A DNA stretch of 64,000 nt from Paecilomyces variotii (Eukaryota), in the NCBI GenBank assembly GCA_004022145.1, contig RCNU01000007.1, one strand, 5' to 3'. Every line of letters begins with the position of its first letter. Position 1 is the stretch's first letter. A program made the translations under genes and the position numbers. The notes beneath the pieces are model-generated. The model was not told the origin of the DNA. It did not search any database and was given only the letters and a program-made list of their open reading frames with translations. Shown here one piece after another: positions 11,261-38,165 of the stretch.

Positions 11261-11718
11261 GAAGAGTAAAGACCTTGAACTGGATAATTCAGACGTACTG
11301 TTCTCTCTTGCCGTTTTTGAATTGACAGATTATGAGGGCATGTTAGGCCACATTTAAGACCGGTCGGTTCCTCTTAAATCAGGCGGAACGGGGCTAAAAG
11401 GAGGGGATGGGCAACGTGGTGAAACCATACAGTCAGCTTCGGCGTCACTAACTGCGTGCCACTATGACCCAATATTCCTTGGTGCAGTCATATTATATGT
11501 AATAATAGCGTGATATTAATTGCTCCACATATGCCTCCATACCAACAATAGAACCAACACGTCTCTTGGCTGCCTCCCATTGCACTTTAATGTCACCATA
11601 GGAAATAACCCCAGAGAGAAGAGACCGAGCAAGTGACCACTTACAATTTATCTGGTCTGGTTGACACCTGGGTCGAAGCGACACCAATTGGAACTAAATT
11701 ACTTGATCCTTGCTGTGG

Positions 11719-13065
11719 TTAGGCAACTAACTTTTCGTGCGCGTCCCAATGTTCATCTAATTCGCCCTCCTCAGCCTGTTGGATCTTCCCCCGAACAAAC
11801 GCGACGAGATCGTCCTGTTCTTCTTGGGTGAGGAGCTTGATACGATCTTCGATGGAAGTACGAGGTCCATAGCGCCATTGGTCAATAAAGGTCCAGTAGA
11901 TATTATCGAACCCGTAACTGGATGTCGCCGCCAGGCAGAACCAGAAATCGCCGTTCTCAAGTGACCGGGCCATTCTGAGCGAAAGACGCTGGTGCTCTGA
12001 GAGGTCACCTCGTTGAATCATTTCATTTTCTTCGTCTTGAAGGGCTTGAATGAATAGGTGGTGCCGCGGACGGTACTCCTCCCAAAATTCCGTCAGGTCG
12101 TCCCACTCATCCGGATGCTTGAGGAGGAGCCACCAGGGAGAACAAAAGGTCAACTCGGCCGGAGCGGCGTAGCAGTACTCCCAGTCAATGACCCCGCGAA
12201 TGTTCAAGTCTGCGTCAACAATCACATTGGTCGGACGCAGGTCATCGCAATAAAGGGGGAATGGGCCTTCATTGTAGGGCGTCGAGAATTCCTTGGCGAT
12301 CTTGAGAAATAGCTGGCGTGCCACGTATTTGTTTCGACAATCTTCCTCATTCACCACGGCATTATTCCGCTGTGTTCGGAGATGGGTGATATGCATTTCA
12401 GCCAGTGCAGTGAAATAGGATCGCGCGGTCTCGAAAGCCTGCTGCGGTAGCGCCTTCGGGGGATAGTTCCCGCAGGAAACCAGTTCGTTCATATTGAAAG
12501 TGATTGGTCTCTTACTAGCAATCCAGTTCCCCGATCTGTCTTGACGGATCGCGCCAATGCGAGAAAACTGACATCGCGATAATTCAATCAACACCCTGGC
12601 CATCTTGCGGTAGACAAAGACCAAAAACGTGCAGTCGATGTCCGGTTGTAAGTGAATGGGTATCCTGGCGTCAGATGATCTTTTCAGATGATCCGACAAT
12701 CGCGTTCCATCCACAAATGACAGTACCATATACGGCCCTATTTGTGAGGAGCTCCCAACCGTGAGGATTTGGGGAACAGGAATTGATGTGTGTCGAGCGA
12801 GGTAGGACATGACCATGTATTCGTCGTTAGTCTTCTCATAGCGGAAAACGCTCTTGCCAAGGATCGGGAAGCGAATAATGCTCTGTAGTCCTTTCAATCG
12901 ATAACAGCAGTTGAACGAGCCCGAGCATAGATACTCATATTCTACCTTGACGCTAAAGCGATCCGTAAGTTCTTGGACTGTCATCGGGAGGCTCTCCCGT
13001 AACTTGCGAACCCAGCTAGCAGCCGTAAAGCACGCCTTATCGTATTGTATGGCGTCATGATGCAT
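11719..13065 (-). CDS. Aminoglycoside-phosphotransferase (APH) / kinase-like family protein
   Basis: Intronless ORF, likely start MHHDAIQY (13065). Motifs GSFNCCY, IIRFPILGK, TSIPVPQI and the Brenner-type CDDLRPTNVIVD...GVIDWEYCYAAP. Confidence 0.88.
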   Translation of the reverse strand: MHHDAIQYDKACFTAASWVRKLRESLPMTVQELTDRFSVKVEYEYLCSGSFNCCYRLKGLQSIIRFPILGKSVFRYEKTNDEYMVMSYLARHTSIPVPQILTVGSSSQIGPYMVLSFVDGTRLSDHLKRSSDARIPIHLQPDIDCTFLVFVYRKMARVLIELSRCQFSRIGAIRQDRSGNWIASKRPITFNMNELVSCGNYPPKALPQQAFETARSYFTALAEMHITHLRTQRNNAVVNEEDCRNKYVARQLFLKIAKEFSTPYNEGPFPLYCDDLRPTNVIVDADLNIRGVIDWEYCYAAPAELTFCSPWWLLLKHPDEWDDLTEFWEEYRPRHHLFIQALQDEENEMIQRGDLSEHQRLSLRMARSLENGDFWFCLAATSSYGFDNIYWTFIDQWRYGPRTSIEDRIKLLTQEEQDDLVAFVRGKIQQAEEGELDEHWDAHEKLVA

Positions 13066-14459
13066 CGCTCGCTTTTTTGGTGGAACGTATTCTGACTGAC
13101 AATGTTGAGTATCTGGGTGGGAATTCAAGACAAGTCCATAAAGCTTGATTAGGTATTCAAATATTATTGACAGGATAGTCCCAAGCACTAAAAACGAGCT
13201 TAGAATCATGTGACTATTAACAGTCTAACCAGATTCAGACTAACAAGACCACCGTGGGCAGCTTGAATCTCGGTCACAATTGAGAGCTGGTATCTGGAAG
13301 CTGGTTGGGAGAAGAGACTTCATGGATAGGTAGATAATTCCCCCAAGATCTTCTCGCAGATTCTGGATCCTCATAGCTAACGCACTTGCTAGGTTGTGCT
13401 AAGTACTGTTGGTTCTCAAGTGCCCAAGTCCAGAATGCACACACCAGATAAGACCTGTATAGCCACCAATGACCAATAATTCCATCGATATCATTGTATC
13501 TGGTAAGATGGGTGTTTTCGCTACCTTACATGGCATATCCCTCTAACGTTAAAAGTTTAGGCATAGTAATCCTGATTTGAAGGAGGTAATAATTGGTCAG
13601 GCGAATTCTCTGCTCGTACTTATCCGTCGGTAGACCTGCTCCAGTCCATACCTAACATGGACTAAGTCCCTAGATGGTTAAGGTTACGGAACGGGCGGAA
13701 GTTACCTAGTACATCCTATATACTCCACCAACGGGGTTTATTATTTCTTCTCTTTTCTTTTCTTTTGAAGTTGCGGATGATGCCAACACAGCCGTTAAGG
13801 ATACCAAGAGGCTGATTAACCAAAGGAAAGGTAGTTAGTTAGTTACCAATTAAATCACTACAGAGCGACTGTCCTGTATGCTTGCTTTTGATGGGAACGG
13901 CTCCAAACTTCACCCTTTAAGATTCTGTCCGACTCAGGAAGCAGCATCTGCAACGTATGCTTATTTATCTTCGCATCGATGGAACGAATCCAAGACACAG
14001 TTATATAGCAACATGAACCAGGTACTTCTGGAAGTTATAATAATAGCACAAAGTAGGCCCATAGGGAAGTTCTTTCGGGGAGCTAATCACTCGCAGTTCT
14101 TCAAAAGTTCCTGCTACTGAGCTAAGTCAATCTCTATCGCAGATTGTCAACGATAATTTATTCCTATTCCGAATCCAGCATTTATGCAGTGACTTCTGGC
14201 ACAGCCAGATGACTGGGGGCGTCCAATGTAAGATACTAAGGCAAGCAACTACTCCGCTTTTCCGAACTAACACCTCGCTGCCCCACTATAAGTACCGTGC
14301 AACGGCGGAGTAACTATAGAGCCGTATGGTATATCCTGAACCAAGATATAAAGGAGAATCGGATTGCTTTAATGACACTGTAGCTCTTTTCTGTGTTATC
14401 TTCCAAGCTCCTGATATTTTGTGCCCTAGAACACTAGATTCTAGATCTAGAAATACAAC

Positions 14460-15824
14460 ATGGCTTTCTACACCAAGGAAGTTATCGCAGCTCTTGATTC
14501 AATCCACCTAGAGAAGCTTAACGGCAATGAAGTAGAACGCCTACAAGTACGCGCTGCTGCACGTCGATTGCTTTCTCGTTTGGAGACGCCTTACGAGCGC
14601 GCCTGGGGCTTTAGCTTCGAACATCCTGTGGTATTTGCCGCTCTACAGACTTTTATCGATGTGAGCCTTTGGGAATCCTGGACTGCTGTTGGGGGTGGTG
14701 AGAAGTCTATCGACGAATTGGTCGAATTAACCACTCCTAAGGTCGATACAAATCTGCTACGTACGCTTTAATACTTACCTTCTTGTTGTCTATCAAGCTT
14801 ACAACGGGTATATAGGTCGTTTCTTTCGCCTGCTAGCAACCGTCAACATAGTTGAAGAGACGAGAGAAGACAGATTCAAACCTACCTTATTTTCATTAGC
14901 TATCGGAGACGAGAGTCCCAAGGTCCGCGCCGCGCTTCAAGAAGGGTATGGATACTCCGAGCAACTATTCCACGCTGCAAGTGAGCTAACGGTTGGCCAG
15001 AGCATATCAATTTATTGCTGCTGGCCATAACCTGCCAAAGTACCTGGCAAAGATCTCTTATAGGGAACCTACAGACGCGAACGTCAATAATTACTCGGAC
15101 AGTGATCCAGACGGCCTTAGCTTCTTCGGGCGATTACAGAGAAGCCCCGCTTATTATGAGACCTTTACTGAATTCATGCGGGGGTGGACGGCATGGAAGA
15201 CACCATGGACGACGGTATACAACACGGACAAGCTTCTGGAAGGCGCCAACATAAGTGCTTTATCTCCTCTCGTGGTTGATGTCGGTGGCAATACGGGAAT
15301 TGATCTTTCCTATGTCCTTGCCAAGCATCCAGGTCTTCCAGCTGGATCACTCGTCTTGCAAGATCTTCCAGAAGTAATTGCCAATGTCAAGGTCGATGAA
15401 AGGATCAAGACTATGGCACATGACTTCTTTTTACCTCAGCCCGTGCAAGGTAAGGCTGCACTTAAGAATTCATATAGGTAGTTTTGTATATACTCACACC
15501 CAGCCTGTAGGGAGTCGTGCTTACTTCATGCACGCCGTCCTCCATGATTGGCCGGACGACAAAGCGAAACAACTGTTGTCGAATACCAGAGAGGCTATGG
15601 TAAAGGGTTACTCCAAGCTTTTCGTATACGAGATTGTCCTTCCACCAACAGGAGCCAGCATTAGTCAAGCCACTATGGACGTCAATATGATGTCGTTGTT
15701 ATCGGCTTCTGAGAGGACTCAAAGCGCGTGGGAGAGGCTATTGGGCGATGCTGGTCTCAAGATTATTGAGATTTGGCCAGACCCTCAAGAGTGCGAGATG
15801 CTCATCGAGGCTGAGGTCGCGTAG
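14460..15824 (+). CDS. SAM-dependent O-methyltransferase (Methyltransf_2 family), 4 exons
   Basis: Exons ~14460-14760, 14816-14945, 15001-15449 and 15511-15824 splice in frame. Motifs VVDVGGNTG, LVLQDLP, AHDFFLPQPV, YFMHAVLHDWPD and ERT. Confidence 0.88.
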
Positions 15825-16410: not shown

Positions 16411-18794
16411 ATGAGAATATCTATCGCGTGTCTGGTATTGTTGATGGCTAGGCTTTACGGGGTAATGGCAAGAGGTAGGTATCTTCTTGCCACGAACTCT
16501 ATCATCCTTAATACTAACAGCAGTACTGTCAGAAGCTCTCCATACCGCCGCCATTCACTATCATGAGAAGAGCCGTACCTTAACCCCCCCAAACAATTAC
16601 AATGGCTGGGTCAACCCTGAAGACCTCCCTGCTATGCCACAATGCATTGCTCAGCAGAATCAATCCGCCTGGTTGAATGCCATAACGGAGTGCACGGCCA
16701 AACAGTGTACCTCATACTTTGGGTTTATTTGCACCCATCAGCAATGGCTGACTGAGCTCTGCTGTCTCACCATTGCATTTCCCTCTGATGTTCTCGAGAG
16801 TTATCTCCCCTACTGCGGTAGATCAGTACTCGCCAAGGCGCAGTTGTATCTATGGATTTGGAATGTAACCGGCCGAACGTGGCTTGTCGATGTTGGCGAC
16901 GCGAACGGGCTGCAGAATCTCTCCCCAGCCTCCCTAGCTGAAGGCTATGCGGACCTGAGCGTGATCTATAATGCACCATCATGTCTGACTGGCTCGGTTT
17001 CCGCTCAGTCGATGGAACGATTTCAACATGTGGTAGCCTCCTGTATGTTCACTGGCACTACCCAACATACCGGAAATGCCGCTCGTCCTTGGGAATATAG
17101 TGAATTTCTACAGTCAATGATCGCTCTGGATTTCGAAACTGTTGGTTACGATCTCACCCGATATAGCATCAGAGACGGCGACTATATTGATAAAGAGTGC
17201 TTCTGCAACGCCTTTACTGTAGATCTAAAAAGCGAACCCTGCTTAGGGTCAGGGCAAATGGACCTGACAAAGGAGCGGCTATGGATGAATGCCACTTGTG
17301 GGTCGATGTCCCTACCTGGTAACTGGACGGACAAGCTCAAAACCACCGAATTTGCGTACATCCCTATTGAGGACTGGCACTGGCCCATGTGTGTCGCGGA
17401 TATGCCGAAGCAGGTGATCGAGCTTCCTGATCAGTGTGCGACTGATGCTTGTGAGATCGACTTAGATGGTTACTGCAAAGTTAAGCGCGCAGTTGATAGG
17501 GCTTGCTTTTGCCGCGACATCAGCTACGATTCCTGCGGAGGTTTGTGCCAGATATTCGAGACCCGAATAGACTATATCAATTGGCTTCGCGACCTTTGTG
17601 GAAATGTAAAGGATTGGCATGGTCTACCTCATAACTGGCGTCAATTAGCCGCTCCCACGTCTCTCGACATGATTCCATGGCGATGGACTGTCAAACCGTC
17701 TAACTGTTCAAACAGTGCCCATATTACCCGTTTGGGATATATCAGACCAACGGAAACATGCGCCTCAAATGGATGGAAGCTCAGAAGCTTTGCTCTAGTC
17801 AATATAGCTACGTTTCTTGCTGCGTTCCTCAGCCTTCAAAAAGTTATGCGTCGAATCGCACGCGATTTTCCACGACATTCACGCCCGTGGTGTTGGTTGT
17901 TCAAGGGAATCATCATAACCGCTCTTCAACTCCTTGCAAACTGGTTCAATGTGTTTCTCGTCCAGACAACCCCTGGCTATAAGGATGTCCCCTTATTCCA
18001 ATTAATGCTCCTCTGGTGCTCAATACCTCGACCCGCCTGGCTAACAATTTTGCTGGTTGGTGTACAACCCTTTGAAACGATGAATTTCTCTGCCGCTGGG
18101 TCTTCTTTATGTGCAGAAGTGTTACTCCAGTTTGCCTCATCATATTATATGTCTACAACCATCAACTATGGCAGGGAGCATAACCTCTATCTTGGAGGTA
18201 TGGAAGGAGCGGAGAGACAAGGGCTAGCAAAAATTATGTATGATGGAGCACTCATGTGGCTCCTGAGCATTAGCCTGGCACTCGCTCAATTGGTGCGGAC
18301 TACACGTAGGATGAATCGGTTGGTCAGATTTAGTAGCCTCGATCTACTAAAGTGGCAGAGAGGCAAGCAGACAATATGGAGCATTGCGGAAGAGCTGATG
18401 ACCTAACGTTACGCACGGTTCAAGGAGAATTTCGCACCCTATTGGGTAGATCAGTGTATGAGCTCGGAAGAAACACCGCTGACAAAGTGCAAAGGAAGAG
18501 ACGATATGAAGTATGGCACTTTCTCTGTCGAAAGTCAAGATCACTGGCTTTCTCAGAAACTATTTGTGGAATTATATGCGGCTACGGTTATTTACATGTT
18601 TTTCCTTTGGATCGCGCAGTGGCTCTTCTGGGGTGTATTTCTTAAGCTTAGTTCGGAAGAGTAAGTATTTACGCACCCAGTTACTTGATTTATAGTAGCT
18701 AACCGGACTTAGGTTCTGTCCTCCTAGGCTTGGGGTTCTCGCAGTAATATGGATTGCTTTCTCAGTGGCGGGTACTATTGTTGCAGCTATTTGA
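16411..18794 (+). pseudogene. Signal-peptide, Cys-rich (CFEM-like repeats) multi-pass membrane protein with an in-frame premature stop
   Basis: Exon 1 MRISIACLVLLMARLYGVMAR, intron ~16475-16520, then a long Cys-rich ectodomain and several TM segments. TAA at 18404-18406 is followed in the same frame by RYARFKENF...MSSEETPL...WIAQWLFWGVF, an intron 18661-18711 and a last exon FCPPRLGVLAVIWIAFS...AAI-TGA (18794). Confidence 0.65.
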
Positions 18795-19077: not shown

Positions 19078-20661
19078 TTACCGTAAGCTAGAGACGTTAG
19101 TCTGGTGTAATGTTCGGTCCCCTATTGTTTCAGTTTCTCCGGCTTCAGGAGTAGCTTCCCGTGATCGGTTCAGTAATCGATCGATCGATTCCTTGACCGG
19201 CTTCCATAGGGCTTTGCGCGCATTTTGGGTGAATTTGCTTTTTATACCGCCATGCTTTGTTGCGCCTGGTGATCCTGAGTCATTCTGAACCTGAAGAGCT
19301 TCTTCTCTGGCCTTGTGGTGCAATGATTCTTCTATGACGGGGCCGTGCGTCTCACCCTCGAATTGAGCGTCCCAAGCAGCAGTGAGATCTTCTAGTCTCT
19401 GGAGTGAAAAATTGCACATTTTTTCCATCCTCTCTTCTGCAACTGGCGATAGTTTCATCCTGCCGTCCTGCAAAGTATATGCCGGCAACTGCACAAACCT
19501 TTCTACAATCTTCACTGTGTCGAGCACTACCTCTCTCTGGGCCCAGAACCACTCTTTGTGTCCCTTTCCGCACTGCTCGCACTTGATGACCTGTAGCTTA
19601 TGATGCCGGAGGATAGCTTGAGCAAGCCTTTTCGCCTTCTGGGCACCGACAAAGGGTCCGTCGGTGGTCTCGTGAATGACCTTTGTGTTAGTCCCATAGC
19701 AGTTCCCAGGCTGATGATGTCTTTTTGCTGCTGTTTCTCTAGTACAGCCGACCTTGAAAAGCCCCTTGATCTCAACGTGCTCGAGGACGTAAACTATGCC
19801 CTCCTTCTGTTCCTCCCCGGTGAGGTACTTGTATATTTCCTTGAGTACCGGCGAAGTGTCTCGCAGTGTTCCCTTACGTTGGAGAGAGGCTAGACCGATT
19901 CCTGTTATTCTAACTTCGGCCTCGTCGTGACATGAGCCATCGCTTGCCGTGGTGTGATGACTTGTGGAAAGCGTTAAATCCTCAACACTTGTCTCAAGTT
20001 CCTCGACCCTTTCGCAGTGGGTGATCTCCGGGGCTTGTTCTCTACTCGGTGCATCCCTTAGAGACCGACTAGATGATGACAAGCTATCGATTATAGATTG
20101 ACACGCCGGAGAGCTGGGGCCTTCCGTTAAAGTGATATCCAAAGTGTCTTCTATGACAATATTGTCTATGCTGTCATTTGGGCTCCTATCCGTACACTGT
20201 TCAGTAGGTTGTTCGATACTCAGCGGCAGGATAGAGGTTGCCGTGCTGCCCGCTTCGGAAAGGGACGCTATGGAACTGAAGTAATCTGTACCCGTAGCAG
20301 TCGAAGAGGTATCTTTGGATAACGAAGATGCGGCCTGCTCCCGCTGCTTCCTCCATTCGTCAAGTCGGGCTAGAGGCTTTTCTTGATGCTTGCCGCAGTG
20401 TGTAATGGTAAGAAACTCCTTAAGTTGGTGATAGAAAATGTCGGTACGAGGGCACTTGTCCATTTCTCTAAATTCAGAGAGCAAGGCGTTCGCCCGTGGT
20501 GCTTTCCCCTTGAGCCCCAGCTGGCACCTTGTTGCAGTCTTGGTGTATGCTCGACATGATGTATAGTCGGATACTTCGGGGTTTGGGAAAACGTCAATTC
20601 CCTCCTGCAGAGCAGCAAGCTCCTTGAAAATTGGATGCTCGCATGGCGTCGGTGTGACCAT
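19078..20661 (-). CDS. T5orf172 / Mug113 (GIY-YIG-like nuclease) domain protein with N-terminal Cys/His motif
   Basis: 527-aa intronless ORF. GIVYVL...LFKVGCT...KR...C...CEQCGKGHKEWF is the T5orf172/MUG113 signature. N-terminal CRAYTKTATRC...HCGKH. Confidence 0.8.
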   Translation of the reverse strand: MVTPTPCEHPIFKELAALQEGIDVFPNPEVSDYTSCRAYTKTATRCQLGLKGKAPRANALLSEFREMDKCPRTDIFYHQLKEFLTITHCGKHQEKPLARLDEWRKQREQAASSLSKDTSSTATGTDYFSSIASLSEAGSTATSILPLSIEQPTEQCTDRSPNDSIDNIVIEDTLDITLTEGPSSPACQSIIDSLSSSSRSLRDAPSREQAPEITHCERVEELETSVEDLTLSTSHHTTASDGSCHDEAEVRITGIGLASLQRKGTLRDTSPVLKEIYKYLTGEEQKEGIVYVLEHVEIKGLFKVGCTRETAAKRHHQPGNCYGTNTKVIHETTDGPFVGAQKAKRLAQAILRHHKLQVIKCEQCGKGHKEWFWAQREVVLDTVKIVERFVQLPAYTLQDGRMKLSPVAEERMEKMCNFSLQRLEDLTAAWDAQFEGETHGPVIEESLHHKAREEALQVQNDSGSPGATKHGGIKSKFTQNARKALWKPVKESIDRLLNRSREATPEAGETETIGDRTLHQTNVSSLR

Positions 20662-22263
20662 GTTGAAGTGAAAACAACCACCATGTGATGGGGAGAAATA
20701 ATGAGAGTTGCTAGTCCTTGATCACGGATAGGCCTGCCAGAGGCGACCTGTTAAATGGACAAGGAAAATGTACGTCGGCCGGCATCATCTACTTACAACC
20801 GAAGGCATCATGCGGTATATGCATTTGATTTCCTGCATATGCAGGAACTGTGGCTTATTTAAATAGGGATGTGACTCCGTCTATCTAGCTGGAATATCAT
20901 CGCCATATGGAGAGGGTATTCCGATGGCTGATCAGTGTTCCGTGATAGCACTATTCCGGAAACGAAAGAACCTCTCATTGGGACTCGGTGTTTGAACTAC
21001 TACTGGTTGGGTTGTCTTATCCTGTACTTAATCCTTGACAACTTCTCTTTGTTTCTTTTGTGTGAACTAATAACTAAAAGTGGGGTATAGATAATCGCGA
21101 CAGGAAGAACCCTACAACACACTCGAGAGAACTATTGGCCGCCGCTAATCACCGCACCCCAGCACCACCTAAACTACTCCGTATTCCTTGCAAAAGTCCA
21201 CTGCGCCCCAACAGTAGTATCTAAACTTGGGACAACCCCAGGTCGGGCACTGCAGGATGCACCAGGTCTTATGCAGACCCGAAGCCCATTATTCAATGAA
21301 AGAGTATTGTACTGTAGTTATCATTCGTTCTAAGGTAGTGGGGCTCCCGAAGTCAGGTCCCGTCGTCCCGATAACTATGGTATGCAGGTGCCAGGACCCC
21401 TACTCAGTAATTGGTATATTTATTATACGGAGTAAGCTGATAAGTGGTTGGAGAGAGAGTATATTTTTGGCGCGCGGGTCCAGAATGGGGGCCGATACGA
21501 AGTTAGACCATTGGGATGAATGAACTACGCCAGGATAAGTAGCGATCTCCGTTCTTAAAAAGACTGTCTTCCTCGACCTTCTTGAACGCGTGGATAATGC
21601 CAGCTGTTTTTTTCGCCAACAACTTCAGATATTTGATCTGTGATCTAGCGTTATAGTCGATTTACTTGGAAACCTGCTCTGTACTCGTCACGGATGGAGA
21701 AAAATCCTGACCAGATTTATTTTTCTCTGGCAAGTGTCCGGAGTTCCTCAAAGGAGAAAAAGCCAATGACGAAAAAGAGTTCTGACATTTCCGTCCCGAA
21801 GCCGAGAACTGGACGCTTCGAAAACTAGTCGATAAATCAAGAGTGACAAATGAGAAAACTGTACAGGTATTCTGGCTTTCGAGCAATGGTCCCAGAAAAT
21901 ACGTAGGCAAAGTTGTAAGTCGATAAGGTCATTGTACGCTTTACCTAAATTAATCGCATCCTACTTAGTTTCCCGACTATACCAAAGAGCAGGCTCGATA
22001 GCAACTTCGGCATCTGAGGGTGTCGAACCATGTTCCACAAATGCTAGACGATGCAGTGCACGAACTTGATAGGTTCTTCCGGGAAGCTCGGGCATATAGC
22101 CACATTGAAACAGACACTAGCTACCTAAAAATGCTACTGCTAAAAGCCAGGTATAAAAGCAGTCATTCGTCTACTAGTATCGTTTATATGTGACAAACTA
22201 TGCTCGCACTAGCCGGTCTCTGGTTTCTATCAGTCGACCCCCATCTGCCTCTGTTCCCGGAAG

Positions 22264-24606
22264 CTAATTCAAGGGAGTTTTCATGAAATCTTGGGCAACA
22301 TCAAGCATCACTTGAGCGCACATTTCCACCGTATCCCAATCCTCCTCATACGCCCACACCGGCAATTTGATCACTTTAGAGTGGAATGCAACGGCTCCAG
22401 GGAAATCGGCAGCTCTCCATTCTGCAACATATGCGTCTGGTGAATACAAATGACCTAAGATCTCCCACGGACGTCGGTACAGGGCCTCATCGTAAAGGGG
22501 TTTAGTTGAACCGGGGATATCGATGTGCTTCATCCCACGCGCCATCACTTCTCGCACATAGATCTCACGGGTCAACCCGGCCGGAGCCTGGGCTTCGTCG
22601 AACCGGAAGATCAGAGCGTACCATGCCGACTTCGCACCCGGTTCGAGCACGGGCGCCTTCAAGAAAGGAATCTGGGCAAGTGCGTCGATGAAGTGGGCTG
22701 CGCATTGCGACTTGCGCTCAAGGATTATTGGAAGTTTCTCCAATTGGTTGTTGGCAATGGAGATCGCAAGCGGGTGCGCCCGGTTCTTCAGACCGGCGCC
22801 CGTAACAGCGAAATCTTGAAGGGGGTGATCTTTGGGGATCTCCGCCTTGCATCGCTTATTGTAATGGCCGTGGATCAGCTGGCGATAATAAACTTCCGGA
22901 TGGGGGGTCAAGGAAACTCCTCCCTCGCCGCCGCTGAGTACTTTGTCGCCCTGAATAGACCAGGCGGCACCATCGCCGAAAGTTCCAATTTTCTTCCCAT
23001 TGATTGATGCACCATGGGCATGCGAACAGTCTATCAATCCGTCAGTTCAGCCATGGCTTATGATAGGAGTAAATGCTTAGTACTTACCTTCAAGCAGAAG
23101 AATACCATTCTTGCGGCAAATGTCAACAATTTCCTCCATAGCACATGGAACACCCCACATGTGGGTAACAATGACGGCCTTAGTCTTCGATGTGATTGCG
23201 CTGGAAATCTTATTTGGGTCCATGTTGCCGGTTTCAGGGTGGGCGTCAACGAACACCGGCTTCACCCCCAAATGCATGAGTGGCGAAACGGTGGCATGAA
23301 AGGTGTAGACAGGAACGATGACCTCGTCCCCAGCGCTGAGCCCAGAAGCATAATAAAGGGCGTGTAGTGCATTTGTGCCCGAGTTGTGCAACAGGGCATA
23401 GTGACCTGGGGTATCATGGAAAGTCCTGAATGCCTCCTCAAAACGGCCGAAAACACCCCCATTATTGTAGATGCTCAGGGTATCGTGGAGCTGTCTGTCA
23501 ACGGCGCGCTCGACATCTGGTGTTACCTTTGGCCATGACCACGCCTTCGCGAGCGGATTCAGTGCCGACTTGGACTCGATTTGATCACTTCCCACCCGAT
23601 AAATCTCGTCAACAAGTTGCATCACAGCAATATCTCTGTCCAGATCCCAGTTGTCGGTATTGTTATTCTCGATGAAGCTGACTAGGCCTCGCTCAAGAAG
23701 AAGGGAAGACGGCTCCTGAACAGTATATTCCTCTTGTGGTGAGAGTCTACCGGTTTCATCACGCAGGGAAAGACGGACGAGGTCTCCATCCAGGGTCAAA
23801 ATGCCTGCCTCTCCAATGACAGAGACTTTCTCTTCATTCCTTGCGCCAGAGCGAGATATAACGATCGTCGCGTTCACAGCATCGCCAAATTTGACCGAAA
23901 TGTGAGCAGTATCATCCACATCATAGTCTCCGTGACGGGTTTTCATCAGCGCGACATGCTGGACTTCAAACTGTCGACCAAAGAGACCAATGAGCTGATC
24001 GAGCATATGGTAGCCCATATCAATCACAACACCGCCTCCGGCAAGTTCCTTGTGTGCTCGCCAACCTTCCGCAAGCTCGGCGACATCAATGGATTCGACG
24101 ACCTGGACAGAACTGATCTTTCCAAGCAGAGGAAGCCATCCTTCCAAGGCGTTGTATCTTCGGGAAAATCGTCGCTGACAGAGCACACTGACTTTAACAC
24201 CATGTGCTGCGGCAAGCTTCTTAAGTTCCAACGCTTCGCTGCTGTTGCAGGCGACTGGCTTTTCCTTCAACACATTTATACCGGCCTGAAACAACTGAGG
24301 CAGCACCTTCGAATATTCATGATGGGGGATCGCCACGTAGGCCACTGACGGCGTGGCATTGTTGCGAAGAAAATCGTCCACTCCGGGGTAGATGGGAAGA
24401 TTGTCGATAGGTGCGGTCTTCACGAAAGGATCCACGGCGCCGGCAATGCGTACCAGACCTGCCTTGGAAAGCTTCAACAATGAGGGAACAGCCTTCTTCT
24501 TTGTTCTTTGACCCAAGCCCACTATCAAGCAAGATTCCCCTTGGGGATTGCCATTGGACTGTCTGCTAAGACGACGCTGTTCACGGAATTGGAGAATTGG
24601 GGACAT
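22264..24606 (-). CDS. Bifunctional Gfo/Idh/MocA NAD(P)-dependent oxidoreductase fused to DegT/DnrJ/EryC1/StrS PLP aminotransferase (~761 aa)
   Basis: N-half: IVGLG, VAIPHHEY, LKEKPVA, QRRF and WRAHKELAGGGVVIDMGYH. C-half: NSGTNAL, GDEVIVPVYTFHAT, PVFVDA, AVIVTHMWG and SIQGDKVLSGGEGG (PLP lysine). One 57-nt GT-AG intron (23087-23031) restores the canonical LLEDCSHAHGA. No stop lies between the domains. Confidence 0.92.
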
Positions 24607-26485
24607 CGTGATGGGAGGAATATGATTCAACACGTACTCTAGAACTAATTTCCTTGCTGGCTTGAAATTGTTCAGGACCTTTGCTGTGTCTAACAAACAT
24701 AGACATACTTATACTTTACCGAGAAGCTTCTGGAGGAACATCTTATTCAGAGGAACAGGCATCATACTTCGTACAAAATATTACAGTGATCATGTAATCA
24801 TCAATCTATCGGAAACAGCCACAGAACGCACGTATAGAACTGTAACTCTGATGTCCCAGAAACCTCGAGGAATTCTCATGTGGGTCTTACAGTGAGCTAT
24901 TATCCTTCCTCTGCAGAGTCTTGTAGCCCAGACCTCCGAGTCATAGGACTGACAACCTGCTTTTCCATCTCTCGCGCACTGCAAGGGCCTAAACTCAAGG
25001 TACTCAATTGTTCACTTAACCATACATGTCTAACCACATGGCCCCTTCGGTGGAGTATGATCTTCCGTAGTCAGTGAATCTATTGGGATATAATGTCGAT
25101 CTGGCTTACATATATTACACCGTATAATTGCGTCAATGACGGATGATGTTATGAAAGCTTCATCAGCCGTGTTTTGAATTTGAATTTCATAGAGGGTTCG
25201 AGCTATATCTCTCCAGCTAATCAGCTAATCGGTCGTCTTGATCCTCAGAACCTGTTGTGGATGTGGCAGAGCTGAGGAATCACTGCTTGCCCGGCCTGGC
25301 TGGCTGAGACGTGCAGCTACATCGCACTACTACAGAGAATAATTAGTTGGCGCTGCCAATTTCATTGGTCGTCCTCCGTCTTCTGTTACGTACGAGCTAC
25401 CTTACTTTATAACTGGGCTGAATATTCTTGACTCTGGCTATCAACTTCTACACATTCCATCTATAATTGTAAAGCGGACGGGTCTATCTAAGTAGTATAC
25501 AATAGCTTACACAGGCCTATTATGCAATCATTCACCCCTCGCCGCGTCCCACATCGCTTTACGGTGAGTGCAAGGTATTACTGTACACTGCTGGCAGGGC
25601 TTTTACCACGGATGGCAAGCAGTACGAGCTTAGGATCAACATTCTCCGCTTGACATCATCCAGTAACTCTTTTGGCAGCAGGATTGCGATTTCCTCGTGT
25701 CACTGTGCCTCCGATAATGTGCGCTGCTGTCCCCTCAGCACAGTCATTCGGGCGAATTCTGCGGCCATGCCAGGTCACCGCATCAGTGTCTCGAGAGACG
25801 CTTTTCAAACTCTTCGACGATTATACCATGAAGCCTGTCGATTGCGAGAGGAGTGCAGCTATCAGATCACTGTGTTAATCTCCGTTGAAGTCGATTAGGC
25901 CCGCCCATCGTCTCGAGACATCATCCAGCAGCTTGTCCACTCACAACTTCGACTTCTTTTCTGGTTCTATTGAAACCTTCTGATAGGAGGGCGCTTGGTG
26001 TTCTCTGATGATAGCCATTGTGTAAGCCACGTTGCTTTTGGACTATCCGAGGATACTGCGCTTACTTGAGGATAGCTGTATCACAACAATCCATCATGTC
26101 AGAAAGAAATAGCCATGCTTCACCTTGAGGCCTGGAGCCAGTAGAGGTAGCTGCGCTTAGAACACATCCTTCATGGGTATAAGGAACGTTACTACCAGAA
26201 TCTTGTTTTGTGCTGGTACTTGTAATAGACTGCATTATATTTGGGGGTCCAGTTGAAATTTTCAGTTATATGGTTAATTGACGTGTCTTCAACTATGAGT
26301 CTGCAGCTTCACACTGAAAGGCGATGTGTGAAGTATTTGCCCATATATAGACATCGGTGCCGCATGTACATGTGTGAGTTTGGTGCAATATTGATGCTCT
26401 TGGTCATGAAGCGTCGTCAATGATTATACCTAGGTACATGATTTCACCATTTATCCCCGTCATTGCAATAGTGCGAAGCAGCCGT

Positions 26486-26989
26486 CTACAGGGACTGCGC
26501 CGCAAACTTGAATGCGTTCTTAACGACCTTTATCATTTCCTCGGTCATGAAAAGTGAATCTATTTGTCCTTCTTGAGCCCACAACCATTCCGTGTGCTCG
26601 TCGGGATTCAGCTTGACAGTAACCCCCGGTTCAACTGTTACCACGTAGTTGAGTTGGATGTTGGATTTCGTTTTGGACTCCCACGTCATCGGCTCGAGTT
26701 CGCCAATGATCTCTGATACGACCTGGGAGGTCTCCTCCAGGACTTCACGCGTGACGGAGTGGGCAACAGTTTCGTCCGTGGTTTCGACGTGTCCGCCAGG
26801 AAGTTCCCAGGCGTTAGGGAAGGCTGTCTCGTGGGGAGCTCGCTTCAACAGAAGGAGAGTAGGGTCCTCCGATTTCGAATTCTGGAAGATCGCAGCGCCA
26901 ATCACCCAACGCTTGGCTGGGTTGAGGTCTTGTGGACGAGAGTGGAGGCGTTGCTCGTCCAAAAACTTGAGGGACCGTTGAACAGCCAT
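26486..26989 (-). CDS. Nudix hydrolase (167 aa, intronless)
   Basis: LLLLKRA...WELPGGHVETTDETVAHSVTREVLEETS is a Nudix box with a one-residue insertion; C-terminal VKLNPDEHTEWLW. Confidence 0.9.
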   Translation of the reverse strand: MAVQRSLKFLDEQRLHSRPQDLNPAKRWVIGAAIFQNSKSEDPTLLLLKRAPHETAFPNAWELPGGHVETTDETVAHSVTREVLEETSQVVSEIIGELEPMTWESKTKSNIQLNYVVTVEPGVTVKLNPDEHTEWLWAQEGQIDSLFMTEEMIKVVKNAFKFAAQSL

Positions 26990-27941: not shown

Positions 27942-29576
27942 ATGACTCCCTCCGAGACGTCGCCTCTTCTCGCCGAGCAATCACCCCAGACACGGCAGAA
28001 GCACCACCGCCACCACCACGATGTGCCCCCAGATTTCTCGCCGTCCTCCGGGGAGAGTCTCTGCCTGCCGCCTGGAGACGAGGCGGTCGCTTCCGAGGAA
28101 TGCAAATTGCTTCTAACCCGGTCTGCTCCCCTGATTGTCACGTTTCTGCTCGAGTACTCGTTCACGGCGGCGAGCATTTTTGCCGTTGGCCATATTGGAA
28201 AGATCGAATTAGCAGCCACCGCAGTCGCGGGCCTCACGGCAAACATTACTGGCTATGCAATCTACCAAGGCCTCGCGACAAGCCTCGACACGCTGTGTCC
28301 GTCCGCGTACGGCGCAGGCCGGAAGGATCTCGTCGGCCTTTATTGCCAGCGCATGACCTGTTTCCTGTGGTTCATGACGATCCCGATCGCGGCCATATGG
28401 CTCTGCGCAGATCGCCTTTTGAAGCTCTTTATCCAGCCCGAGATCGCCAGGATGGCTGGGTTGTACCTCCGCGTCCTGGTATTGGGCGCGCCGGGCTATG
28501 CGGCATTTGAGTGTGGGAAGAGATTCATGCTGGCGCAAGGTCTCTTCTCGGCAACCGTATGGGTTCTGATTTTGTGCGCACCACTCAATGCAGTTCTCAA
28601 TTATCTCTTCGTCTGGGTATGTCCCCGACCCCTCAAACTTGCTGCTCAGGGTTCCCTCCAAGGTCACTGACTTGAGCCTGAAGACATTCAACTGGGGCTT
28701 TCTCGGAGCCCCAATGGCCGTCGTCATTGCCCAGACTCTGATGCCCGTCATCCTTGCCGTCTACATCACCTGCATCGCAGGATCCGAATGCTGGAATGGC
28801 TTCACGCGGTCTGTTTTCCACGGGTGGTGGCCAATGGTTCGACTTGCTCTTCCAGGGATGGTGATGGTGGAAGCCGAACTGCTCGCATGGGAGCTTCTCA
28901 CGTTGGCATCCAGCTTCATTTCCGTGGAGCATCTTGCCGCACAGTCAACGATCGCAACACTAGGTGCGATCGCTTTCAACTTTCACTTTCCGATCTCTAT
29001 TGCCGCGGCGACTAGGATATCAACGTTGATCGGCGCAGGCCACGCAGATGCAGCCAAAAGGGCAGCGAAGGTATCGATCTTGACTGCTTTTGTCTTCGGA
29101 ATCCTTGTGGCCATTCTCTTAGGAACGCTACGGAACCAGCTTCCTGCGCTTTTCACCGAAAACCCGGATGTCATCCATTTCGTCAGTGCTGTTTTACCGA
29201 TGGTCGGAGTTTCGCAGGTCTTTGACTCGCTGGCAACGTCCTGTAACGGCCTTCTCAGAGGACTGGGAAAGCAGAACGTTGGAAGTGTCACCGCCCTGTT
29301 CTGCTATTACGGGGTAAGTTGATCTTGCGTTATCTCCATGATCCCACTTTGCCCGAATCGGGAGGACATCTGCTAAGTAATCGCTCCGTTCAGGTTGGGA
29401 TTCCGATCTCATTTGCCTTGGCATTTTGGTTTCACTGGGATCTTCTGGGTTTGGCAGTTGGAACGACATTAGCTTTATTGCTAGTCGCCCTCATCGAAGG
29501 GGCCTTTATGGCGACGACTCACTGGGAGCGTATTGTAGAGGAGGCAAGCATGCGCAATGAGCCGACGGTTTCTTAG
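27942..29576 (+). CDS. MATE family efflux transporter, 3 exons
   Basis: Introns 28617-28683 and 29314-29393. Motifs GHIGKIELAA, GLATSLDTLCPSAYGAG, LALPGMVMVEAE, ATRISTLIGAG and GLLRGLGKQ; about 12 hydrophobic segments. Confidence 0.92.
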
Positions 29577-30662: not shown

Positions 30663-32509
30663 ATGTCCTTTAGCCTGTCAGTCAATTTGGACGACGCCTC
30701 AATTAGACCTCTGAGATCGAGACTCGGATGCAAAACCTGCAAGCAAGTTTCTCTTCTCTTCTTGCAAAAGGAGTGAAATATTAATCATGCCCTAGAATCC
30801 GAAGAGTCAAGTGTGGAGAAGAAAAGCCTAATTGCCTCCGATGCACCAGCACAGGTCGCAAGTGCGAGTACGAAAATCCAATTGCCCGCACGTATTGGTC
30901 TTCGGCTTCCACCTTTTCCATCCTTGACACCCCTCTGTCATTATTATCCAATGCAGTACTGCGAGAGCGTCGCGCTTTTGCCTACTATTTCCAAAACACA
31001 GCAACGTTTGTCGGCGGTGGACTGGATGTGGATTTCTGGCTCACCATCGTCCCGCAGGTCTGCCGGAGTGAACCCGCCGTGTGGGATGCCCTGATCTCCA
31101 TAAGTTCACTGTTCGAGAGTCCCGATCCCTGTCCGGATCTCGTCTCTGTACGCCGGGGACATGCTCGCACTCTAAATCAAAACCAACAAGACGCGTTAGT
31201 CTGGTATTCGCGTTCGGTATCTGCTGTTCGCCGGGGAATCGAGCGCGGTAGTGTGGACTCTTTTGTCGGATTAATCACCTGCATCTTATTTATCTGCATT
31301 GAGGCCCTTTGGGGTGGTATGGAAGAGGCTTTGCACCTCTATAGTCAAGGAGTACATCTCATACTCGCTTTACAGACCCAGAGTGCATATGCGGCTATGA
31401 CAGAAACCAAAACGTCCTTATTAAAGGATACAATTGTCCCGATTTTTATCCGAATTGGAGCCGTCACTCTCAATACCGGCGTTTCAATGAGCCCGCTATT
31501 GCAGGAAACCGAACATGAATCCGCGCCGGAGTTTACCTCCCTCAAGTCCGCACGGGAAGCCATTGTTATCCTAGCCATAGAGATCCCACTTTTCGAACTA
31601 GATTGCGAAGAATACCTAATACAGTCGCATGCCTGCCACATATCCGAAGAACTGATGAGTCGGCAGAAAGTCTTGTCAAGCAGGTTACAGAGCTGGTACA
31701 CTGCTTTCACTAACATTATGGAATCTCTTCGCACGAAGGATGGCTTATCAGCGCTGCAAGCTAGCACTGGTGCCCTTCTCCTCACTTACTATGAAATGTT
31801 ATCCGTTATCATCGGGGTCTGCGTATCGCCATTGCGCATCACCACTGACGCTTATACATCGAATTTTCAAAATATAGCCGAACAATCCCGCATCGCTTTG
31901 ACAGGTTCAGCGCGACGTGATGGTACACAACCACCGTTCACGTTCGAACTCAGTGTTGGCCTGCCACTTTGGTTTACGTGTATCAGGTGTCGTGAACCCA
32001 CAATTCGACGCACAGCACTAGCTTTGCTACGTCGAGCGCATCATATCGAAGGGCTTTATAAGCGCGACTACGCAGCCACCATGAGCGAAAGAATTATCAT
32101 GGTGGAAGAAATGTACGGAATAACGTCAAGTGCAGCCCAAAGCGTGGCCAACATTACTACACGAAAACCAAACGATGCATGCATTGAACACAAACCCCGT
32201 TGTCAAGGCAGTCGGGGCCCACACAGTCCCTTTGACATGGACTTCGAACTCGGCGCAAGTCCATACCTTCCACTTACCGATACTGAACCCAGCACTTCGG
32301 AAGCAGTGCTTATCCCAGCAGAGGCACGCATTAGACCTCTCGGCATTTTTCGGCCACGGGATGGTTATCCTCCTGAGATGACTGAGGATGATATCGCAAG
32401 GTTGAGCCTAAGCCGCGATCAGACGTTTCTACATTTCTCGCGGAACGAGCACGATCAGTATCACAATACGTGGCACACGATCCATGGATACGTTCCTATT
32501 GAGTTCTAA
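30663..32509 (+). CDS. Zn(II)2Cys6 transcription factor
   Basis: ATG 30663 ...RSRLGCKTCK / GC-AG intron 30743-30795 / IRRVKCGEEKPNCLRCTSTGRKCEY, then in frame through ERRAFAYYF...FWLTIVPQVCRSEPAVWDAL...CREPTIRRTALALL to the stop at 32509. Confidence 0.9.
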
Positions 32510-34030
32510 CTATGTTCGAAGTTGCTTTGATTTGAACTGAATGGGGTAGAAGGAGTAAGAGAGGGTACGATTTCAAGGATAGCATTGTCCGTCTGCTCGG
32601 CCTCAAAAAGACGATGATCGAGGTTCGCAGACAAGGTTGAGCTGGCAGAGATCGAGAATTATCAGCGTGGTATCTTGAAACGCATGAGAGAACAAGAGTA
32701 GAAGTCGTCGTTCCTTGCGATCAAAACAATCCCATACTGGTCAGCTGTACCTCCTGGGGGAAGAGGAACCCCCTTTCCTACCCCCGATGGACAGTTTCGA
32801 CCGATAGTCCCAGAAAGTAACATTTGCATCACGTCAGGCTATTTGGAGATTCATCAGCACCGGTGACTTTCTCCGGGCCCGGACGGGTAAACTGCGTCGA
32901 CCCTCCCGCGCAGAATATCGGAGCTTACCCAGAAGAAGCTTGCAAAACAAAGCTCGACTGAAGGTGCACATCAAGATTTAGGGCCGTACTCTACAGCCTT
33001 CCTCAGAAGACCACAGGGATGTGTTGTATCTTCCGTTAGAGACAATCAGGATGCAGGCTAATATCTTTGATAGCGGTAGTGGGTCTGTCACCCTTCACAC
33101 AACTCGCTACCTACATCTAACGAGTAGGCGCAGCAATTGCCATAGCCGGCATCTTCCAATTGTTCTGGTTGGACATAGTCATATACAGAGCACTGCCTTC
33201 ATCCTTTTGAGACTCTTTGTGTTTGTCTGCCCCTTAGGCCGGGGCAGGTTAAGAACCATATCCTAAACCACTGAATTGCATCGAAAGACTCTAGGCAGTG
33301 TGAGATACTATTATCTTGATCCTACTGTTTCTCTATTATAGCGGCATGTGCGCCTGTGGGTAATCCCCAAGTATCGGCAAGTGCGACTTGTAGTGTAGAT
33401 GAGGAACTTGTTTACTAAATTGACTACGGAGTATACAGAAAATAGTGTGATGCCTTGAACCCTGTATTATAGGATTTAAACCGGGTAATCTCGGTAGGGC
33501 TTGTTTCGCGTTATGTGCTGTTTAGGGAAAGTAGATTTCTCACTGGCAGCTGCCTAGCTACCGCAGGCTCCTCTTCTCCCGTTTATGCCGTGAGCCTTGC
33601 ACTCGCCGTAAATGATTAGCAGGTGATCTCTATCATCTTCCTCCTTCATCTTCCGCTTTACATCAGTCTATACTCAACGGCCCAGACGAAAGTTTAGAGC
33701 TTCGAGCTCGATTCCTACGAGAACCAAGCATTCCATTAATCTTCATCCCGAGCTTCCGAGATAAATCAAGTTTTTCTGTCCGCCACGGAATAAAGCTATT
33801 GAAACACCGTGCTAAAATCGTGATTAGATCAATTTCCCCAGGATATCTGTTGTCGAGGGATTGAACATCGACAGCCTTCTCATAATCACAGTTAAATCCC
33901 CCCTTTTCCGAAGTATCTACTGTCGGATACCAAACCTCGAAAACCGTTTTTCTACTGTCGGAATCGTTATAACCACCACTATATCCCCTTCCCAAAGGTA
34001 CACCGCTGAAACCTGTCTTCTCCGCCCAGG

Positions 34031-35588: not shown

Positions 35589-38165
<2,577 letters not shown>

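Follow-up and report, generated by a model that had tools for sequence, protein, structure and literature searches.

A Paecilomyces variotii gene that fuses a dehydrogenase to an aminotransferase may, together with a linked Nudix hydrolase gene, form a fungal module of the Pur10–Pur4(–Pur7) type, in which C3' of a ribonucleotide would be oxidised and aminated to yield a 3'-amino-3'-deoxynucleoside. We place the probability of this reading at roughly two in three (about 0.68). The module would be the fungal counterpart of the 3'-amino-3'-deoxyribose builders for puromycin (Pur10, Pur4, Pur7) and aminodeoxyguanosine (AdgB, AdgC, AdgD), and the linkage of the Nudix gene is what points to this pathway. 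The features of the window, that is, the whole 64,000-nucleotide stretch of DNA analysed, are collected in Table 1.

Table 1. Features of the fusion gene and its neighbours, in window positions.
Feature	Position	Strand	Evidence
Fusion gene, 761 aa, Gfo/Idh/MocA dehydrogenase + DegT/DnrJ/EryC1 aminotransferase (Pur10-Pur4 / AdgB-AdgC-like)	22264..24606	-	ORF, Pfam, RNA contigs
Dehydrogenase domain, residues about 24-340; G30-x-G32, K116-P117 of EKP motif, D196, H200	23587..24537	-	Pfam, alignment, model
Interdomain linker, residues about 341-355, low model confidence at 343-349	23542..23586	-	Alignment, model
Aminotransferase domain, residues about 356-761, intron-split; D507, catalytic K536 in WSIQGDK, GHYNKR 561-566	22264..23541	-	Pfam, alignment
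57-nt GT-AG intron, phase 1, branch motif CTGAC at 23045-23041	23031..23087	-	Sequence and spliced RNA contigs
Nudix hydrolase, 167 aa, putative Pur7/AdgD-like role	26486..26989	-	Profile search, linkage, contigs of X1, X2, X3
MATE transporter and candidate exporter, 495 aa, with introns at 28617-28683 and 29314-29393	27942..29576	+	Pfam, RNA splices
Zn(2)Cys(6) transcription-factor ORF; possible regulator	30785..32509	+	Weak Pfam match, E 1.4e-4

The fusion gene begins with an ATG at 24606 and consists of exon 1 (24606-23088) and exon 2 (23030-22264, stop included). The original prediction described a single ORF joining both domains through a short linker, and this description holds: the linker sequence that it quoted was found, and one contig of run X1 (22576-24698) spans both domains and the splice, so that two separate genes can be ruled out. 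The intron that it proposed was re-derived from the sequence, with the form GTAAGT...CTGAC...TAG; it interrupts the Asp codon of the EDCSHAHG motif and contains in-frame stops, and splicing is therefore required for the fusion protein. Transcript evidence was drawn from four runs and consists of contigs, not single molecules; X3 is RNA on record, and X1 and X6 are RNA by automatic guess only. In X1 and X3, position 23030 is joined directly to 23088, leaving out the 57 nt of the intron; a gap of the same 57-nt length occurs in X6, set 10 nt further on. Contigs of run X2 are unspliced and cover intergenic DNA, indicating that X2 probably holds DNA. The gene's words are almost missing from five runs labelled P. 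variotii, which is no proof of absence. The spliced 761-aa product is identical to P0124 and differs at 2 residues from P0003 of P. variotii, and the gene occurs once in the 30.1-Mb genome G000. Bacterial contamination, which the original prediction had already dismissed in favour of an integrated fungal gene, is ruled out by the spliced RNA contigs and by flanking genes that are fungal and intron-bearing (Pfam; RNA contigs). No composition or RIP anomaly was observed at the locus.

Pfam matches to GFO_IDH_MocA (residues 26-141), GFO_IDH_MocA_C/C3 (161-288) and DegT_DnrJ_EryC1 (over both exons) all exceed their gathering scores. As judged by alignment of 32 fused proteins, both domains keep their catalytic motifs intact: K116, P117 and H200 of the dehydrogenase are invariant and G30, G32 and D196 nearly so, and the PLP Asp D507 and catalytic Lys K536 of the aminotransferase are invariant in all 32 rows. 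The linker varies in length among homologues. A single-chain model (pLDDT 89.7, pTM 0.60) is confident within the domains and of low confidence in the linker, and does not place the domain interface firmly.

The Nudix gene, absent from the original prediction, lies 1.9 kb from the fusion and is single copy. Locus tags of the fusion and the Nudix gene are adjacent in Pyrenula and two apart in P. variotii, and four more pairs occur on contigs of equal size; in one P. rubens annotation the two tags are 65 apart. Nudix proteins 36-41% identical to that of the window stand beside the fusion at loci L087, L129, L135 and L145, and the Nudix tree recovers the same main fungal groups. No MATE match was found beside the fusion in nine metagenome fungal loci, most of them short. 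The window ORFs scanned contained no Pur3/AdgE-like inositol monophosphatase, short exons of which might escape such a scan, and no GNAT match to a PAC-type N-acetyltransferase; the scanned ORFs of the window and of the 20 kb upstream of it showed no Starship captain domain.

The fungal fusion was found in Eurotiales, lichen fungi, Geoglossum, Hypocreales, Pleosporales and three basidiomycetes. The named matches included no Cordyceps or Helminthosporium homologue, and no known producer is among the cluster-carrying fungi found. Outside the fungi the nearest relatives are prokaryotic, and in the aminotransferase tree the fungal rows form one clade inside the prokaryotic rows, which supports a prokaryotic origin of the fungal gene by horizontal acquisition, as originally proposed. 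Ascomycete monophyly was rejected (AU p 0.0001; 12 ascomycete, 3 basidiomycete and 4 other rows), which excludes an inheritance that simply follows the species tree. In line with the proposed intron gain, the intron is lineage-specific: in another fungal clade the gene is interrupted at a different position. The proposed order, acquisition followed by fusion, is not established. Among the best 80 of at least 578 prokaryotic loci, three, which come from two genomes, likewise encode both enzymes in one ORF, and trees constrained to unite all fused proteins outscore free quick trees (AU p 0.54 and 0.91); a single origin for all fusions is therefore compatible with the trees, in the sense that it is not rejected, and fusion as a fungal invention is not supported. 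Two of the three fungal lineages mix ascomycetes and basidiomycetes, making ancient paralogy with loss as possible as fungus-to-fungus transfer. The module would have come from prokaryotes, probably early and possibly fused already, and later patchy spread in fungi may reflect paralogy and loss, fungus-to-fungus transfer, or both. Three supplements of a fungal HGT survey gave no match to six accession or family terms.

To describe the prokaryotic relatives, we used the best 80 of at least 578 confirmed GTDB loci, and the locus counts in this paragraph refer to that set. In 60 of the 78 loci with enough flank, the dehydrogenase immediately precedes the aminotransferase or forms a fusion with it, and in 15 further loci of the 78 a MoaA/viperin-like radical SAM protein takes its place; the top profile for the latter is the GTP 3',8-cyclase MoaA (E 2e-43 and 2e-40; below cut-off), followed by viperin. 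MoaA works at C3' of GTP. A Nudix gene directly follows the aminotransferase in 51 of 76 loci and is not directly adjacent in the other 25, against 3 Nudix matches in 420 kb of distant flank. The other recurrent neighbours, where identified, act mostly on nucleotides: thymidylate-kinase-like genes occur near the aminotransferase in 20/80 loci and a CYTH-like protein in 15/80, NDK, CMP kinase and IMPase are each represented by one neighbour gene, and a Pur3/AdgE-like phosphatase is found at 1/80. Longer fusions join dehydrogenase, aminotransferase and Nudix (P0366), or dehydrogenase, aminotransferase, a P-loop-kinase-like domain and Nudix (P0365). Among the GTDB loci listed, archaea and Patescibacteria of reduced genome frequently carry the module, which also occurs in Clostridia and actinomycetes; the closest prokaryotic operons (44-48% identity) are uncharacterised. 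Family members also lie near a formyltransferase (L167, L178), near a tRNA-ligase-like gene (L168) or, as a pair at the more distant L166, among glycosyltransferases, so that more than one product is served by the subfamily. Viral and phage collections yielded only distant DegT genes (26-33% identity), no Enterobacteriaceae centre emerged in samples of 151, 121, 204 and 401 further genomes, and no pur-like cluster was present at the two loci inspected from genome samples that covered 401 actinomycetes and, separately, three actinomycete genera. A Streptomyces viridifaciens plasmid match considered as the cystocin cluster was rejected as such, being an aminotransferase–Nudix operon.

The placement of the fungal protein within the subfamily runs through Photorhabdus. 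Along its length, the aminotransferase of the window shows 40% identity to Photorhabdus P0283 (E 2e-102), compared with 31.5% to ArnB. It has WSxQGxK...GH(Y/F)NKR in common with P0181, L163 and L164; the pattern G(H/Q)(Y/F)(N/E)xR occurs in 97 of 109 tree rows and is missing from ArnB and WecE. P0181 is 74-77% identical to proteins of plasmid operons with the order dehydrogenase–aminotransferase–Nudix–inositol monophosphatase. This order matches that of adgB-E, which are homologues of pur10, pur4, pur7 and pur3 and make ADG in E. coli (PMC9239236), and we infer that P0181/P0283 is AdgC. The fungal and the ADG-like proteins are moderately similar, with 40% identity for the aminotransferase, 24-27% for the dehydrogenase and an E of about 1e-11 for the Nudix hydrolase, and ADG-like rows fall in the family tree but not as sister to the fungal clade. 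The tie to characterised Pur4, Pur10 and AdgB-D would be by proxy, through the Photorhabdus cluster, the operon order and a similar N-terminus.

Like adgA-E of Photorhabdus luminescens (3'-amino-3'-deoxyguanosine; PMC9239236), the fungal locus combines a Gfo/Idh/MocA dehydrogenase, a DegT aminotransferase and a Nudix hydrolase with a transporter nearby; it differs in that the first two are fused and intron-bearing, that the window lacks a Pur3/AdgE phosphatase and that a MATE protein replaces the MFS transporter. Relative to the puromycin/cystocin/A201A core (Pur10, Pur4, Pur7, Pur3; PMC11641026, PMC5884247), no PAC acetyltransferase or phosphatase was recognised in the window. The cordycepin cluster cns1-4 offers a further comparison in fungi; its Cns1 is an oxidoreductase. 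It is likewise a small fungal cluster with a transporter, for a 3'-modified adenosine, and the accessible part of its description mentions no aminotransferase or Nudix hydrolase (PMC12648386).

Under the preferred reading, the NAD-dependent domain would oxidise a ribonucleoside triphosphate (ATP or GTP being the likeliest) at its 3'-OH to give the 3'-keto nucleotide, the PLP domain would transaminate C3', and the Nudix hydrolase would remove pyrophosphate before or after amination, a step that may also shield host polymerases from chain-terminating triphosphates. Two of three pathway papers place the Nudix step between the two activities fused here. The weakest part of the scheme has a housekeeping phosphatase releasing the nucleoside and the adjacent MATE protein exporting an antimetabolite prodrug against competitors. 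The 3-keto intermediate put forward in the original prediction is likely, but on nucleotide ribose rather than on an NDP-hexose; that the fusion channels it, as also proposed there, is a hypothesis.

It is quite improbable that the fusion is instead an amino-sugar enzyme akin to WlbA/WlbC (WbpB/WbpE), GnnA/GnnB or the kanosamine pair NtdC/NtdA, and that it oxidises and transaminates an NDP-hexose or glucose-6-phosphate at C3 while the Nudix hydrolase frees a sugar phosphate. Such pairs, as well as RifL/RifK, have the two folds and the 3-keto oxidation–transamination logic of the fusion, NDP-sugars can be cleaved by Nudix enzymes, the solved-structure matches are all sugar or cyclitol aminotransferases, and the L166 pair lies among glycosyltransferases. 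Yet the top-ranked structures are only 22-26% identical, WbpE chains about 23%, and the NCBIfam sugar-aminotransferase models (PseC, WecE, ArnB, DesI, RfbH, LegC) all score far below cut-off (best 158.9 against 423.5). A polysaccharide context is also missing: the 103 neighbour proteins at 14 of the 80 loci include no epimerase, flippase or O-antigen gene, and their sole glycosyltransferase is the MurG of a cell-division cluster. NMP kinases, CYTH proteins and a MoaA-like substitute suit nucleotides, not hexoses. Even less probable is a reverse or housekeeping role, in which the enzyme detoxifies or salvages 3'-amino or 3'-keto nucleosides or damaged environmental nucleotides. Either reaction could in principle run backwards, enzymes that sanitise or salvage nucleotides typically include Nudix, CYTH and kinase proteins, Patescibacteria rely on salvage, and several fungal copies end in PTS1-like tripeptides, which are frequent in catabolic enzymes; however, the operons nearest a characterised system (adgB-E) are biosynthetic, and the patchy distribution with apparently truncated Penicillium copies suits conflict or secondary-metabolism genes.

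A role inside the cell deserves separate weighing. Viperin, prokaryotic viperins and MoaA likewise make chain-terminating ribonucleotide analogues from NTPs and have associated kinases, and the product here might be an intracellular 3'-amino-3'-deoxy-NTP that terminates chains of viruses or retro-elements, with the Nudix hydrolase as off-switch and no export. Consistent with this, nucleotide kinases outnumber phosphatases (20/80 against 1/80 prokaryotic loci, best 80 of at least 578), some kinases match the viperin-associated VakA profile, the substitute radical SAM protein is viperin-related, a pVip-like gene lies three genes downstream at L016 (PADLOC E 5e-44), the listed loci often belong to archaea or to Patescibacteria with reduced genomes, and ADG-TP stops RNA synthesis (PMC9239236). 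We nevertheless consider it unlikely for the fungus: no kinase was found at the fungal locus, which adjoins a MATE pump; a radical SAM domain is lacking from the fungal protein; and the putative product is 3'-amino, not 3',4'-didehydro. PADLOC 2.0 profiles matched among neighbours (pVip, VakA, PDC-S07, PDC-M51B), and none matched P0003 or the two L012 dehydrogenase and aminotransferase enzymes. A broader proposal, doubtful but worth stating, is that the module of dehydrogenase (or MoaA-like radical SAM), aminotransferase and Nudix, with or without kinase or CYTH, is an undescribed viperin-like defence making 3'-amino-3'-deoxy-NTPs, that the puromycin and ADG clusters are its antibiotic offshoots, and that an early fused transfer gave fungi both defence and a route to 3'-amino-3'-deoxyadenosine.

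3'-Amino-3'-deoxyadenosine is a long-known antitumour nucleoside first isolated from fungi. A metabolome table for Cordyceps includes it as an annotated compound (PMC5479552), and a 2025 review lists it among nucleosides without an identified cluster (PMC12648386). In the literature searched, which covered few subscription journals, we found no account of the fusion, of a pur/adg-type cluster in fungi or of a defence role for the module, and no description of fungal genes for chain-stopping, antibiotic-like compounds of the kind proposed here. The two-gene locus, transcribed in a culturable mould, provides a concrete and readily testable candidate for the 3'-amino-3'-deoxyadenosine genes, and, if the reading is true, one polypeptide carrying the Pur10 and Pur4 steps would be a useful biocatalyst for 3'-amino nucleosides. 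Its prokaryotic relatives represent a far wider module, as yet uncharacterised, whose dehydrogenase can be replaced by a radical SAM protein of the MoaA/viperin-like kind and which raises the testable question of nucleotide-analogue immunity in reduced-genome bacteria and archaea.

The dehydrogenase-aminotransferase fusion gene is real and expressed, and its Pfam domain order is Gfo/Idh/MocA dehydrogenase followed by DegT aminotransferase. The original prediction placed a 57-nt GT-AG intron within EDCSHAHG, where it interrupts the Asp codon: assembled contigs from sequencing runs X1 and X3 skip this intron exactly, X6 carries a 57-nt skip shifted 10 nt further on, and X2, probably DNA, is without splicing there. 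The predicted single transcript was borne out by one X1 contig (22576-24698) spanning both domains. The gene is present in one copy in the genome. Its spliced product equals the database record P0124 exactly and differs from P0003 at two residues, both records being annotated Paecilomyces variotii; nine of the 15 members of its 90% cluster are named P. variotii variants. Residues K116, P117, H200, D507 and K536, which we take to be catalytic or PLP-binding, are invariant in 32 full-length fused homologues. The AlphaFold model comprises two well-folded domains joined by a low-confidence linker (pLDDT 89.7, pTM 0.60), and its best-ranked PDB matches share 22-26% identity.

Positions of the fusion gene, its neighbours and associated transcripts in the window
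Feature	Position	Strand	Details
Fusion gene	ATG 24606 to stop 22264	minus	761-aa spliced product, one intron
Fusion intron, 57 nt	23087-23031	minus	GTAAGT donor, CTGAC branch motif, TAG acceptor, phase 1, in-frame stops
Nudix gene, 167 aa	26989-26486	minus	single copy
MATE gene	27942-29576		spliced in X1, X3 and X6
Two O-methyltransferase (Methyltransf_2) genes and an APH-family kinase gene	8318-9168, 11719-13224, 14990-15824		6-14 kb from fusion gene
T5orf172-domain ORF, HNH_2 ORF, 646-aa ORF without Pfam match	19078-20721, 34010-35284, 16466-18406		flank the cluster
Dimethylglycine-dehydrogenase-like (DAO + GCV_T) and Rieske ring-hydroxylating genes	35589-44698		
X1 contigs without long ORF	21801-22544, 25621-26877	plus	GT-AG joints 21915-21968, 25622-25678, 26022-26075

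The plus-strand X1 contigs reach into the 3' ends of both the fusion gene and the Nudix gene and are possibly antisense transcripts or merged convergent UTRs. Elsewhere in the window, the T5orf172, HNH_2 and 646-aa ORFs are as in accessory fungal regions, with no Starship captain domain among the ORFs scanned; the genes at 35589-44698 possibly serve choline/betaine catabolism. Methyltransferases also occur in the puromycin pathway, which includes the O-methyltransferase DmpM.

A dehydrogenase, an aminotransferase and a Nudix enzyme constitute Pur10, Pur4 and Pur7 (puromycin) and AdgB, AdgC and AdgD (aminodeoxyguanosine; PMC9239236; PMC11641026; PMC5884247), and adgB-E is described as sufficient for 3'-amino-3'-deoxyguanosine production in E. 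coli (PMC9239236). Likeness of the window genes to these enzymes was judged with Photorhabdus-type proteins and adgB-E-ordered operons as stand-ins. A search with a Proteus relative retrieved Xenorhabdus and Photorhabdus members, P. luminescens pieces being present in the Photorhabdus cluster. The Photorhabdus-type aminotransferase P0181 is 74-77% identical to its counterparts in operons carried on plasmids by two insect symbionts; these operons run dehydrogenase-aminotransferase-Nudix-inositol monophosphatase, the order expected of adgB-E, and their dehydrogenase N-termini (MKVAVIGCG, MKISIIGCG) are close to MKLVIIGC, hand-read from the adgB primer in PMC9239236. Over its full length, the aminotransferase of the window shares 40% identity with Photorhabdus P0283; identity is 44-48% with uncharacterised operon proteins and 31.5% with the NDP-sugar aminotransferase ArnB. 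The GH(Y/F)NKR-type motif common to the window protein and its relatives is absent in ArnB and WecE. Links of the other parts to ADG-like proteins are weaker (dehydrogenase 24-27% identity; Nudix E about 1e-11). From these similarities, the fusion most likely has the function of Pur10-Pur4 or AdgB-AdgC, and the linked Nudix enzyme would play the part of Pur7; compared with the pur and adg clusters, the window locus is not a complete one.

The two symbiont operons were intact and belong to stink-bug gut symbionts (L164:2396-5843, Ca. Pantoea carbekii plasmid; L163:3935-7382, Plautia stali symbiont plasmid). Besides repA, the operon is the sole annotated cargo of the 6.3-kb Ca. Pantoea carbekii plasmid, which suggests a defensive nucleoside in this symbiosis.

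A scan of GTDB genomes limited to 600 stretches gave at least 578 confirmed ones, of which the best 80 loci were analysed and display a stereotyped operon; since these were picked as best matches and include near-relatives, the following counts are not independent events. Of 78 loci with sufficient upstream sequence, 60 had a Gfo/Idh/MocA gene immediately upstream of the aminotransferase or joined to it as a fusion; in 15 others that position was occupied by a radical SAM gene or domain. Immediately downstream, 51 of 76 loci had a Nudix gene, against three Nudix matches in 420 kb of distant flank. Within 4 kb, the best 80 GTDB loci held 63 Nudix, 20 thymidylate-kinase-like, one IMPase and one NDK gene, and 80 metagenome loci held 69 Nudix genes and 25 kinases. 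CYTH-like proteins occurred in 15 of 80 GTDB loci. Longer fusions join dehydrogenase, aminotransferase and Nudix (P0366, 952 aa) or insert a kinase-like domain before the Nudix (P0365, 1132 aa; the uridine-kinase-like domain is assigned from an Atlas score of 0.90), and AT-Nudix, kinase-AT and radical SAM-AT fusions also exist.

The radical SAM replacing the NAD dehydrogenase (L016:7029-9176, L054:7038-9179, L007:6844-7899 and 12 more GTDB loci) is MoaA/viperin-like: two that were scored matched GTP 3',8-cyclase MoaA best and viperin next, all under the cut-off. It is fused to the aminotransferase in Clostridia, and Nudix and NMP kinase genes adjoin such loci; L016 also holds a pVip-like gene (10989-11783). 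These loci are a candidate undescribed nucleotide-analogue defence system. More distant family members lie in clusters with aldo-keto reductase, B12/radical SAM and formyltransferase (L167:4309-10888, L178:5816-15114) or with oxidoreductase, MazG-like, class I tRNA ligase and GNAT (L168:1079-9826). These are probably other nucleoside clusters, so the subfamily would feed several uncharacterised products.

Of 166 aminotransferase rows, 109 remained once redundant and short sequences had been removed, and in their tree (LG+G4, quick search) 20 named fungal and nine other fused rows formed one clade (SH-aLRT 99) within prokaryotic rows, adjoining mostly Patescibacteria operons (SH-aLRT 91), although taxon labels of metagenome-assembled rows (e.g., L012, G002) may be wrong. 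This agrees with the horizontal origin originally proposed. Trees of the dehydrogenase (66 of 93 rows) and of the concatenated domains (55 rows) were poorly resolved at the base and placed Periconia and Leucogyrophana apart from the remaining fungi, so a single entry into fungi is indicated by the aminotransferase alone. Ascomycete monophyly, as vertical descent would have it, was rejected (p 0.0001): Paecilomyces and Aspergillus grouped with Phellopilus and Gymnopilus, and Periconia with Leucogyrophana, which would fit either ancient paralogy followed by many losses or transfer from one fungus to another. The proposal that fusion followed acquisition fared less well. Single-ORF fusions exist in prokaryotes (L009 and L010 from one alphaproteobacterial genome, and L015), and trees constrained to keep all fused proteins together had higher likelihoods than the unconstrained quick ones (AU p 0.54 and 0.91). 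Fusion after transfer thereby loses support, one origin is not thereby proven, and the quick searches were evidently not optimal.

Among the best 120 of 1157 matches, fused homologues occurred in Aspergillus, Penicillium, several lichen fungi, Geoglossum, Conoideocrella, Pyrenula and Periconia, and in the basidiomycetes Phellopilus, Gymnopilus and Leucogyrophana. Eight close homologues stop or diverge at LLEG, where P0008 has an insert, a pattern that an intron shared with the window gene would produce. In five metagenome loci of fungal appearance (L084, L087, L129, L135, L145), a phase 0 intron lies elsewhere, EDCSH being uninterrupted in those checked; since site and phase differ, the predicted intron gain occurred separately in at least two lineages.

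Some copies appear damaged. L084:175-2700 and L087:5208-7600 are fusion pseudogenes: these two fungal sequences are almost identical and both have an early stop within the EDCSH codons. In all checked annotated copies of the Penicillium rubens/chrysogenum cluster (P0009, P0153-P0161) the first 160-200 residues, which make up the NAD-binding half, are missing, and so is the C-terminus in most; either decay or mis-annotation would account for this. PTS1-like (peroxisomal) ARL or AKL termini occur in P0049, P0050, P0363, P0037, P0039 and P0360, including Periconia and Leucogyrophana, and the window protein has none.

A fusion partner was identified for seven of 47 homologues of the window Nudix gene; the other 40 (e.g., Trichoderma, Cladorrhinum, Lasiosphaeris) are without an assignable one. 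Locus tags of the pair are consecutive in Pyrenula and two apart in P. variotii, and four pairs on equal-sized contigs (19,560; 315,827; 8,882; 5,725) are presumably linked; in P. rubens the two have only the chromosome in common (tags 65 apart in one annotation). Nudix relatives adjoin the fusion in L087, L129, L135 (near-identical to L129) and L145, L083 and L084 being too short to show this. The main fungal groups recur in the Nudix tree.

We favour, at a probability of about 0.68, a biosynthetic module with an exported product. The window's MATE gene was not found in other fungal fusion loci examined, and no phosphatase or kinase partner was recognised adjoining the fusion among the window ORFs scanned. 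The same chemistry could instead yield an intracellular terminator, an unlikely outcome. An amino-hexose enzyme is less probable still: Pfam matches among 103 neighbours at 14 of the GTDB loci included no polysaccharide genes except MurG. Detoxification or salvage appears the least plausible reading.

Earlier fungal isolations include 3'-amino-3'-deoxyadenosine, and chryscandin is also known. A 2025 review places 3'-amino-3'-deoxyadenosine among nucleosides without an identified cluster (PMC12648386), and a metabolome table annotates it in Cordyceps nidus (PMC5479552). The literature searched, mostly outside subscription journals, contained nothing on the fusion, on the cluster around it in fungi or on the broader operon, and the supplements of a fungal HGT survey (PMC11708051) held none of the accessions or families sought.

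In the biosynthetic module we favour, the 3'-OH of ATP or GTP would be oxidised in an NAD-dependent step and aminated with PLP, the Nudix enzyme would remove pyrophosphate, and a housekeeping enzyme would dephosphorylate the product before export. The Nudix step is placed between oxidation and amination in PMC9239236 and PMC11641026, and after both in PMC5884247. If it does intervene, the fused domains do not pass the intermediate on by direct channelling, and the benefit of fusion would lie in fixed stoichiometry and in the expression of both activities from one gene in a eukaryotic host.
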